Position numbers and translations under genes: made by a program
Assembly (NCBI GenBank): GCA_016840405.1
Contig: JAEOSK010000011.1
Location: forward strand, 2,634-66,633
Source of the DNA: Candidatus Hermodarchaeum yapensis
GTDB lineage: Archaea; Asgardarchaeota; Hermodarchaeia; Hermodarchaeales; Hermodarchaeaceae
Length of the DNA stretch: 64,000 nucleotides
Reading direction: 5' to 3'
In this document: piece by piece, positions 44,792 through 47,467 of the stretch
How positions within the stretch are numbered: the first letter of the stretch is position 1
Layout of the letters: every line of letters starts with the position of its first letter
Notes under the pieces: generated by a model
Told to the model about the DNA's origin: nothing
Database searches by the model: none
The model's input: the letters and a program-made list of their open reading frames with translations, nothing else

Positions 44792-47467
44792 TTAGGATTT
44801 TCGTCGCCAAGCTGTCGGATATGTACCTGTAGACATAACTACTCTCGCCGTATCCGCAACTATTCCTGACTTAGCTTCTAGAACCTGTTTGGTTGCCATC
44901 AGCGCAGTCGCTAACGCGACCAATTCACCTTTTTGGGTCATGAGGGCGACGGAGTCACCCGGTTTGATATCTGCATGTAATTGTAACACTCCAATTACAG
45001 CAAGATTTGCGCCATGACAGATAGCATTAACAGCAGAATCACGTATGATGATCTGCGCAAGATGTTGAACTCCCTCTTCAAGAGGACGAATATAACGGCG
45101 AAGGAGACGGTCTTCCTTATCTTCCTGCCAAAAATGAAAAGCATCAACCAAATCATAGAGCGAGATAAAATTAGCATCTTCTTTAAAGGGTCCAGTGCGT
45201 GTGCGACGGAGTTCAGCCATATGCGCTCCACCGCCAAGAACCTCACCGATATCGTAACAATTACTTACAAAAGCAGCACCATTCAATGCAAAATTATGAA
45301 AGTGATCTACTGTGATATCATAGACATAACCAAAATCCGGAATTGTTTTCTTAATCGTTTTGATTTTTTCCAGAAAATAATTCGCCCCTATTTGTCTTTG
45401 TAATTCTATTAAGTCAGAATCGTCTTTAGGTATTAAAGCAAGTAAAGATTTTACCAATCTTGACAAAAGGCGTCTTGTTGGTCTTTGACCAGATAGGAGT
45501 CTATTAAATGCTCCTCCCCTGTATATTGAATTTAGTGATAACCCATATTTCTGAATTATATTTTTAATATGTGCTACACAGGAGAGAGGCATTAAGTCTT
45601 GAGATCCATATGAGGTGTATCGTGAAAACTGTGTATCAAATTGCTCAAGCTTTTTCATCTTTTGTGGATGTTTGCATTTCATTAATTGGGAAAAGCGAAT
45701 CTTATCAAAAGGCGATTTAAGTACTACATGATACTTCAGGACTGAATCACTCTTATCGAACGTTGGTGACAAGCTCTCATATATCTTTGAACGAATTCCA
45801 AGGCGTTTTAGTAGTAGAAATATTTGCACTGCAACATGTTTGTAAGCCGTTTCATATGCGATTTGTGTATAAGGTGAATTTGTTTTAATGCTAACTGTGC
45901 CATCGCCATCAAAATATCCCGATAAGAAACTGGAAATAAGATTTTTTGAAAGCGAAGAAAGATTTTCTAAATGCATGGTTTTCTTTGGGCTAGTAATTCC
46001 TAATTTTTTCGCTATCCCTGCAAGTACTGGGTTGTTGACCGTTACAATAACAGTCCTAGATATCTTAGTTTGAGTAATTTTGCTTGACGGGAATAACCGA
46101 TTCACAATTGAAATAAATGTTTCAATAAGTTCGATTTCTGTGTTTGTGAAAATAACTCTTGTAGGTCGAACGCATTTCTTTTCCTGCACTATACTGCCAT
46201 CAGACGCTACCAATCCTAGCAAATAGAGAAGTTCTGAATTAAGTTTTTTATCAGTGATTGCGTAATACGCACCTCTCTCTCCTTTGAAGGCTTCAGTCAA
46301 TTCGCATACTGAAAACCAATCTAACTCAGTTTCTTCACAAACCTGACGGAGATATTTAATTCGGATGCCCCTTTCTGGTTGGAGAAAGATTCGACGATCT
46401 ATTCCCAAAATTCGACAGGCTTTGGTTAGACTCCCATATGACCTTGAAAGGGATTTTTTACATTGTTTTTTCAGTTCGTTTCCAAAGCAAAGGAAATCAG
46501 AATCTAGTAACTCGATAAGATATGGAATTTTATCAGATTTTAGAATTAATTCGCGAGGACTAAAAACAAAGTTTCCTGGAACGACATCTTTTGCATCTAT
46601 CAATAATGGTCCATTGATATCGTCTATTAGTATTTCATGGTCAGGCGTAACGAAGAGGGTAATACCCGAATCGAGTTCGAGTTCAACCATCTCAGAAGGG
46701 GCAGGTAATCTTTGGATTCCGGTTATTGAAGAAGATACAACTTTGTGTTCGTTAAGACTCAAAGAGACCGTCTCTAAGGTTTTCAAATTAAATTGATTGG
46801 AATTGGTAACACCTAGGCTTGAGTCAATGATATCAGAGATTTGATGGAGTCCTCCATTTTGTAAAAAGAGGAATGAGGAAGGAGCAACACATAGTTTTCG
46901 AATATAGGTGCCCGCTTGACAGCCAACTTGAAAGAGCACGTCTTGCCCGTCGATTTCTAGTATATCTAAATAGTAAATCTGTCTTGTGCGGAGTCGTCGT
47001 TTGACGGAAGAGCGGAGGGGAGGACGTTGATAGATGGTTCCGACAAATTCTGCGGCAGCCTTTCGAATGTTATCTTTGGATTCTTGTTGATGGAGTCGCA
47101 GAATGCAAACATATTCTTTGCCAGCTTTTAGCAGAACATTGGCAATTTTCGTAGCGTTTCCTAACATGACAGGTAATACACCGGTTACCTTTGGATCCAA
47201 TGTTCCGGAATGCCCTGCGCGATTAAGGCTTAGGATTCGCTTAACCCAAGATACCACTTCATGGCTGGTGGGTCCTGGAGGTTTTTCTGGGCCTGTAAAG
47301 GGTTATTGACCCCTTCAGAACAAGCTATCCAGATTGATTATACCATTCTGAAATAATTCAGGAATGGTTCGCGTTCCAGGGACACGACCATAGGTGGGAT
47401 TTGTAGTATCTTCGGCGCGCGTTACCATTTTCCGCTGTTTGTCGGCAGGTAGCCGCGGTTTTGTCAC
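44792..47467 (-). CDS. cbf5: tRNA/rRNA pseudouridine synthase Cbf5 (TruB family, PUA domain), interrupted by a 42-nt intron-like insert and an intein
   Basis: Exon 1 (47467..47327, GTG start 9 nt after GGAGG) encodes 'TKPRLPADKQRKMVTRAEDTTNPTYGRVPGTRTIPELFQNGIINLD'. Exon 2 begins 'KPPGPTSHEVVSWVKRILSLNRAGHSGTLDP...GTYIRKL', then the intein, then '[25 protein letters not shown]' and the PUA region. The conceptual mature protein is 333 aa. Confidence 0.85.
45260..46891 (-). mobile_element. Intein (544 aa) with LAGLIDADG homing endonuclease domain inside cbf5
   Basis: It starts 'CVAPSSFLFL' (Cys1, TGT 46891-46889), has block B 'TPDH', two LAGLIDADG motifs 'LLYLLGLVASDGS' and 'FLSGYFDGDGT', and ends 'VYDITVDHFHNFALNGAAFVSN' followed by +1 Cys (45259-45257). 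The flanks rejoin to '[16 protein letters not shown]', the conserved Cbf5 core. Confidence 0.85.
47285..47326 (-). other. Candidate bulge-helix-bulge-type pre-mRNA intron in cbf5 (42 nt)
   Basis: The in-frame insert AGCTTGTTCTGAAGGGGTCAATAACCCTTTACAGGCCCAGAA (minus strand) carries TGA and TAA between '...GIINLD' and 'KPPGPTSHEV...'. Exon CUGG pairs with intron-3' CCAG. A 3-nt bulge AUA lies at the 5' site. Inner helices are GCUUGU/ACAGGC and GAAGGG/CCCUUU. The 3' site lies in the A-run after CCAG. Confidence 0.65.

Follow-up and report, generated by a model that had tools for sequence, protein, structure and literature searches.

Cbf5, the homolog of human dyskerin, is the catalytic subunit of the H/ACA pseudouridylation complex. 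Inteins usually insert in highly conserved active-site motifs, and a His at the penultimate intein position (G:6) is common, but not obligatory. A pre-mRNA intron in the cbf5 gene of Crenarchaeota was reportedly described by Watanabe in 2002. Here we analysed a 64,000-nt stretch of DNA from Candidatus Hermodarchaeum yapensis (the whole stretch is called the window), in which the cbf5 gene (44792..47467) is predicted to be interrupted by elements of both kinds: a 544-aa intein in the catalytic core of the protein and a 42-nt tRNA-type intron between the codons for Asp47 and Lys48. All positions refer to the window; cbf5 and all its parts lie on the minus strand.

The penultimate His has been described as an assisting residue in splicing (review PMC4031507), and the documented cases of splicing without it that are cited in this review include Chen, Benner and Perler (2000) and the Ssp DnaE structure. 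The crenarchaeal cbf5 intron measures 16–44 bp, forms a relaxed bulge-helix-bulge and is cleaved between bulge residues two and three (Yokobori 2009, PMC2738675). R181 is an active-site Arg that was studied in Escherichia coli TruB, and a figure in the same paper aligns TruB with Pyrococcus furiosus Cbf5 (PMC3973310).

The insert in the catalytic core of Cbf5

The open reading frame (ORF) listed for cbf5 spans 44792..47257 and encodes 821 aa. Its residues 123–666 (45260..46891) form an insert of 544 aa, which stands in frame between GTYIRKL and CYDIG. The insert begins with CVAPSS, its Cys1 codon being 46891..46889, and ends with HNFALNGAAFVSN (FVSN), followed directly by the +1 Cys. In the Pfam layout of the ORF, TruB_N (residues 6–119) precedes and TruB_C_2 (667–730) and PUA (735–806) follow a split Intein_splicing match (132–660), to which two LAGLIDADG_3 matches and Hom_end are added. 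Intein_splicing scored 55 bits (1e-14) against a cut-off of 35.8, and the two LAGLIDADG_3 matches reached 8.5e-19. By sequence, the intein also matches PI-PfuI (3.5e-5), a TFIIB intein and the mini-intein of Pho RadA.

We searched NCBI, ENA, JGI and Logan data with the 821-aa ORF and obtained at least 59 clusters of Cbf5 precursors (583–870 aa, one truncated), all with an intein at GTYIRKL|C. Cys1, Thr82, His85, Asp525, His532, Asn544 and Cys+1 are invariant in 59/59 of these. Thr82 and His85 belong to intein block B (GITLFVTPDHEILI, 46625..46666), while Asp525, His532, Ser543 and Asn544 belong to blocks F and G (YVYDITVDHFHNF...GAAFVSN, 45260..45328). The first LAGLIDADG motif (LLYLLGLVASDGSI, intein residues 221–234, 46190..46231) contains Asp231, and the second (FLSGYFDGDGTV, intein residues 322–333, 45893..45928), recognised from Pfam and the family alignment, contains Asp328 and Asp330. 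At each motif, the Asp is present in 53 of the 59 family members, and the Hermodarchaeum copy keeps both (LLGLVASDG and GYFDGDG). In an alignment of 16 diverse family members, the homology runs over the full length of the intein.

We also built an AlphaFold2 model of the intein with the family alignment and compared it to the PDB by Foldseek. The model had a predicted local distance difference test (pLDDT) value of 90.9 and a predicted template-modelling (pTM) score of 0.91. Its best matches were the inteins PI-TkoII (2cw7, 1e-21) and TliVMA (7qss, 4e-20; template-modelling (TM) score 0.78 on the target), and further matches were PI-PfuI (1dq3), PhoVMA and PI-SceI. The modelled endonuclease core has the alpha-beta-beta-alpha-beta-beta-alpha fold, with Foldseek matches to I-DmoI and I-Tsp061I over ∼193–211 columns (TM 0.68–0.75 on the target).

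The insertion point corresponds to Leu178|Cys179 of mature Cbf5, two residues past the Arg of GTYIR. This Arg is most likely equivalent to the one in the active site of TruB enzymes (R181 in E. coli), and the insertion falls in the most conserved active-site motif of Cbf5. Intein-free alleles read GTYIRKL-V-YDIG or a near variant (the site in a related species is ...ACCTATATTCGAAAATTA|GTCTACGATATCGGTGAG...), while both intein alleles of the genus have Cys at +1. The site is uninterrupted in 12 other species of the genus and in 4 species of its sister genus, and residues 6–332 of mature Cbf5 align with the Pyrococcus Cbf5 structures without a gap at both junctions (2aus, 7e-122; 3lwo, 5e-119). 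One intein-free locus (L018, genome G008) carries Cys instead of Val at +1 (GTYIRKICFDIG, KICFDIG), which may be the footprint of a precisely lost intein.

Cys1, the TxxH of block B, the terminal Asn with Cys+1, the HINT fold and the flanks that are contiguous in intein-free homologs all characterise a class-1 intein. The penultimate His of this class is absent, its place being taken by Ser543. We do not regard this Ser as decay, because 58/59 of the Cbf5 inteins at this site have it; its conservation rather argues for function. In the family alignment, a Ser at this position characterises the whole intein lineage and is not peculiar to the Hermodarchaeum copy. On Pfam, the structure model and the family alignment, we read the insert as a canonical class-1 intein in which a LAGLIDADG homing endonuclease is nested, at a probability of about 0.9.

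A preliminary description of the locus had reported a 544-aa insert at 45260–46891 with Cys1, a 'TPDH' block, two LAGLIDADG motifs and a +1 Cys; its coordinates are exact to the base and all these parts are present. It had proposed checks with Hint and LAGLIDADG hidden Markov models, on the contiguity of the flanks and on intein-free alleles in related genomes: Intein_splicing and LAGLIDADG_3 matched, the flanks join without the insert, and the 16 related species have uninterrupted alleles. It had also called other frequent intein hosts in the window intein-free, in agreement with the lack of any further intein match on the window's contig. The penultimate Ser that it pointed out is real, and the family alignment shows that it is not an oddity of a single copy.

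Distribution and probable mobility of the Cbf5 inteins

Within the genus, 2 of 15 genomes carry the intein. Besides the source genome, this is a metagenome-assembled genome (MAG) of a different species, obtained independently and named 'Candidatus Hermodarchaeota archaeon YT2_032' (JAEOTO010000003.1; Asgard in the NCBI taxonomy), where the layout is the same at 74% identity. The two nearest relatives by extein identity (95 and 93%) are without the intein and have Val at +1. Eight of the 59 precursor clusters belong to the Hermod clade; most of them begin at a truncated MVSWVKRIL, and therefore carry the RNA intron too.

Outside this clade, one-genome-per-species data gave 34 loci with a Cbf5 intein at GTYIRKL|C, labelled Bathyarchaeia, Thermoproteota, Hadarchaeota, Woesearchaeota, Nanoarchaeota and Promethearchaeota, along with some doubtful labels. 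Among the Asgard archaea, at least 6 of the 382 species with a cbf5 match carry a Cbf5 intein, the two genomes above included. Ten Asgard genomes with two cbf5 matches were probed; four had a member of the Cbf5 intein family and six did not. The insertion site had been suspected to be rare. We indeed found no description of Cbf5 as an intein host in the papers searched (InBase and the supplementary tables of intein surveys not included), but the sequence data, with their clusters and loci, contradict rarity. The source genome is otherwise rich in inteins: on six contigs outside the window, ∼8 more long open frames (769–1698 aa) match LAGLIDADG_3 and/or Intein_splicing.

The source being a MAG, and the G+C content of the intein being 35–38% against 46–50% in its flanks, an assembly or binning artefact could be thought of, in which a chimeric contig joins cbf5 to an unrelated intein. 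We consider this hardly conceivable. Both junctions keep the reading frame to the base, at a codon that is also the insertion point in the at least 59 independent clusters and in the 34 loci of other genomes, and the YT2_032 MAG of another species repeats the layout.

In a tree of the inteins, which carries no support values, we observed two deep branches, with the Asgard copies in at least three separate places; this scatter fits transfer between phyla. The Hermod copies form a branch of their own, with 29–37% identity to the sampled other lineages and 46–92% within the clade, and in the same unsupported topology their neighbour is a Hadarchaeum copy. A DPANN-like branch, which includes four Asgard copies, is separate from the Hermod branch. 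The Hermod intein is also longer (544 aa) than most other family members (491–537 aa).

To describe selection, we compared the Hermodarchaeum and YT2_032 copies by the Nei-Gojobori method. The ratio of non-synonymous to synonymous substitution (dN/dS) was 0.18 over the intein as a whole and 0.125 in its endonuclease region, which, together with the two retained LAGLIDADG Asp residues, we take as signs of selection for function. Synonymous differences (pS) amounted to 0.52 in the intein and 0.78–0.85 in the exteins; this gives a hint, although weak evidence, that the two hosts had already diverged before the intein arrived. The G+C content of the intein, its patchiness in the genus and the mixing of phyla in the tree are the signs of a mobile element.

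These data also bear on the possibility that the intein splices but its endonuclease is dead, the element being a fixed passenger that is inherited only vertically in the Hermod lineage. Endonuclease decay does occur in the Cbf5 intein family, as seen from the 6 of 59 members that lack the Asp at each motif and from an Odinarchaeota-labelled member of only 436 aa, which has no LAGLIDADG Pfam match and ends in KN. Moreover, intein identity in the Hermod clade falls from 92% down to 46% along with extein identity (74–95%), as it would under vertical descent. The Hermodarchaeum copy, however, keeps both motifs with their Asp and a low endonuclease dN/dS, the intein is patchy and missing from the closest relatives, and its synonymous divergence is lower than that of the flanks. 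We therefore hold a dead endonuclease to be possible, but rather unlikely, and favour an intein with a functional endonuclease.

The putative 42-nt intron and the complete cbf5 gene

The 821-aa ORF starts at ...VVSWVKRIL, in the middle of a conserved Cbf5 segment. Upstream in the same frame we read LPADKQRKMVTRAEDTTNPTYGRVPGTRTIPELFQNGIINLD, then 14 codons with two stops (SLF-stop-RGQ-stop-PFTGPE) and then KPPGPTSHEVV. The 14 codons coincide with a putative pre-mRNA intron of 42 nt (47285..47326), a tRNA-type, relaxed bulge-helix-bulge element assigned from its fold and its conservation in the genus. In the resulting gene model, exon 1 (47327..47467; 47 codons, MTKPRLPADKQRK...GIINLD), which is kept in 14/14 species of the genus, starts with the GTG at 47467, 8 nt downstream of GGAGGT. 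Exon 2 comprises the N-extein part (46892..47284), which runs from KPPGPTSHEV through GHSGTLDP with the catalytic Asp77 to CQAGTYIRKL (TruB_N, 4e-27, and PDB alignment), then the intein, then the C-extein (44795..45259) with Cys+1 (45259..45257), the TruB C-terminal domain (TruB_C_2, 3.6e-21) and the PUA domain (1.4e-17), and ends at the stop codon 44794..44792. Read from the GTG without 47326..47285, the gene gives a precursor of 877 aa (2631 nt, with no internal stop or frameshift), and without the intein a mature Cbf5 of 333 aa. The 821-aa ORF of the preliminary description thus has the right extent as an ORF; as a model of the whole gene it is truncated, lacking exon 1 and the RNA intron.

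Eight public protein records of the Hermod clade (P0001–P0008) begin at MVSWVKRIL or later; exon 1 (47 aa) is missing from these gene calls because of the RNA intron. One of them, the JGI record P0008, is labelled 'intein/homing endonuclease', and in other lineages, those public records of the precursor family that bear a name are called no more than Cbf5, TruB or 'PUA domain-containing protein'. For annotation, this means that current gene callers give a truncated 821-aa protein in the Hermod clade, without exon 1, and that the precursor is named simply Cbf5.

An insert of 40–43 nt lies between the Asp47 and Lys48 codons in 14/14 species of the genus with the locus, while the gene is uninterrupted at this point in the sister genus and in other Asgard families. 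As the length varies (40, 41, 42 or 43 nt), the frame is broken in 9 of the 14 species, and the in-frame versions carry stops. Single-sequence folding and RNAalifold agree on a 4-bp helix, CUGG/CCAG (paired in 14/14), a 3-nt bulge AUA and an inner helix of 5–6 bp. If AUA, and likewise the AAA following the helix, were each cut behind its second nucleotide, GAU|AAA would be restored exactly. The motif is of the relaxed kind, since the outer exon-exon helix is missing. Covariation is weak: most columns are invariant, so that column shuffling gave no significance (223 of 500 shuffles reached the observed pairing). The single-sequence fold has a z-score of −1.39. The argument for an intron rests on the logic of the frame and on conservation. 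The host genome encodes the splicing machinery, namely two EndA paralogs and RtcB. Our literature search turned up nothing on a cbf5 intron in Asgard archaea.

On the plus strand at 44637..44748, 44 nt from the cbf5 stop codon, lies a gene for tRNA-Ser(GGA) that is interrupted by a 28-nt intron after position 37 (Rfam tRNA, 49.8 bits). The presence of this gene next to cbf5 indicates that the host cell processes tRNA-type introns. ARAGORN was negative for tRNAs in the whole window, a result that we disregarded, as Rfam finds the tRNA-Ser(GGA); intron-bearing tRNAs in the window escape this default tool.

The two neighbouring introns resemble each other at their junctions. The end of cbf5 exon 1, CUGGAU|A (in 47285..47345), copies the anticodon loop CUGGAA|A of the tRNA-Ser(GGA) (in 44665..44710, plus strand). 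The central 4-bp helix consists in each case of CUGG paired with a CCAG or CCAA from the 3′ end of the intron, and the cut would follow the second bulge residue; the intron interiors are dissimilar. The intron-less sister genus has CTC, ATA, ATC or GTG for the CTG codon and is therefore without CUGG. This look-alike site in cbf5 could have captured an intron of the tRNA-Ser type.

Inserts at a second position were seen elsewhere in the phylum. In other Asgard families (L123/G029 770-870, L124/G039 745-850, L125/G024 755-850, L126/G037 and L037/G034), ∼30–40 nt split the catalytic Asp codon (GGTL-D-PKVTG), just where the classical cbf5 intron of Crenarchaeota lies. The phylum survey also gave two cbf5 matches in all six species of one further Asgard family and in several species of others.

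From the above we propose the following course of expression. The cbf5 pre-mRNA would lose the 42-nt intron through the splicing endonuclease and the RtcB ligase, and translation of the spliced mRNA would yield the 877-aa precursor. Self-excision of the intein would then begin with an acyl shift at Cys1, proceed through trans-thioesterification to Cys+1 and cyclisation of Asn544, and end with another acyl shift. This would leave the 333-aa Cbf5, whose junction residue is Cys179, and the 544-aa endonuclease in free form. The latter probably cuts intein-free cbf5 alleles (GTYIRKL-V-YDIG), into which the element would be copied by repair.

Four points weigh against this account. The penultimate His is absent, which may slow splicing down or make it conditional. 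The splicing of protein and RNA and the cleavage of DNA are all deduced from sequence. The MAG (2.7 Mb in 77 contigs) is 86% complete, so that a second, intein-free copy of cbf5 is conceivable, although a single cbf5 was detected. Finally, the low synonymous divergence of the intein may partly reflect AT-rich codon usage and not recent transfer.

If the penultimate Ser, the double interruption of the gene and the incompleteness of the MAG are given full weight, the intein could be decayed and unable to splice, making this cbf5 copy a pseudogene or an inactive enzyme. The nucleophiles and assisting residues are, however, intact and invariant across the 59 members, where Ser543 is almost universal as well; the 2631-nt exon-joined frame is open, dN/dS is low, the genome yielded no second cbf5, and the same arrangement recurs in the YT2_032 species and in eight protein clusters from several data sources. 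A decayed intein is therefore very improbable, and a splicing-competent one remains our reading.

A more speculative idea, to which we give little credence, is that active Cbf5 is gated twice, at the RNA level by the tRNA-splicing endonuclease and subsequently, in the protein, by an intein that splices conditionally. If this were true, the His-less Asn cyclisation and the Cys1/Cys+1 pair, two residues from the active-site Arg, could sense redox, temperature or the assembly with guide RNA and Nop10, and H/ACA pseudouridylation capacity would be tuned both post-transcriptionally and post-translationally.

Comparison with known inteins and introns

With these results, Cbf5 may be added to the list of intein hosts. 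One intein lineage uses the Cbf5 site across several archaeal phyla, with the penultimate His stably replaced by Ser, and this offers a natural series for studying Asn cyclisation that is assisted without the penultimate His. The Hermodarchaeum gene, from an archaeon related to the ancestor of eukaryotes, would also be a rare case in which one essential gene should need both RNA and protein splicing.

Distant kin of the Cbf5 intein lineage show 25–31% identity over the full length, and many of them end in ...VSN|C. Their hosts are different: A/V-ATPase subunit A (ATP-synt_ab), a radical-SAM HMPTM-type enzyme, a NiFe-hydrogenase/Complex1_49kDa protein and an FAD oxidoreductase. Several matches (L065, L070, L086, L087, L090 and others) with ...VSN|C and the C-flank CE(S/A)LRE... 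come from MAGs labelled bacterial (Armatimonadetes, Rubrobacteraceae, Acetothermia); either the intein lineage crosses domains or these bins are mislabelled. We considered the matches with bacterial labels (Armatimonadetes, Anaerolineae, Rubrobacteraceae) as TruB inteins at the homologous site; of those scanned, L065 (Armatimonadetes label) is an A/V-ATPase subunit A and L049 (Anaerolineae label) an FAD/ferredoxin oxidoreductase, and the remaining ones with the same C-flank motif are presumably ATPase inteins. No bacterial TruB intein was seen among the matches that we examined in bacterial-labelled MAGs.

We compared the intein with the solved structures of PI-TkoII (2cw7), TliVMA and PhoVMA (7qss, 7qst), PI-PfuI (1dq3) and PI-SceI (1vde). 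All combine a split HINT domain with a two-motif LAGLIDADG endonuclease and with additional helical parts for DNA binding. The Foldseek E-values range from 1e-21 to 1e-9, and Cys1, TxxH, the terminal Asn and Cys+1 agree with class-1 inteins. In contrast, sequence identity is only 12–17%, Ser replaces the penultimate His, the Cbf5 intein is longer than most of them, and the hosts of the solved inteins are DNA polymerase, A/V-ATPase and ribonucleotide reductase.

The Hermod intron, in turn, shares with the crenarchaeal cbf5 intron its gene, its shortness, the relaxed motif and the cutting rule. The two differ in their site: the classical intron splits the catalytic Asp codon, whereas the Hermod intron lies 30 codons upstream and occurs in one Asgard genus and not in its sister genus.

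Among the closest systems are also the Cbf5 inteins of other archaea (labelled Woesearchaeota, Nanoarchaeota, Bathyarchaeia, Hadarchaeota, Odinarchaeota and Promethearchaeota), which have the same insertion point, the same blocks and the (V/I/S)SN|C ending; among the Cbf5 intein family, only the Hermod copies have the Asp47|Lys48 RNA intron in the same gene. The intein is of an ordinary kind, in a host that we did not find described in print and that carries it widely in public sequence data. What is particular to the Hermodarchaeum copy is its place on a Hermod branch of its own, the lineage-wide penultimate Ser and the coexisting tRNA-type intron.

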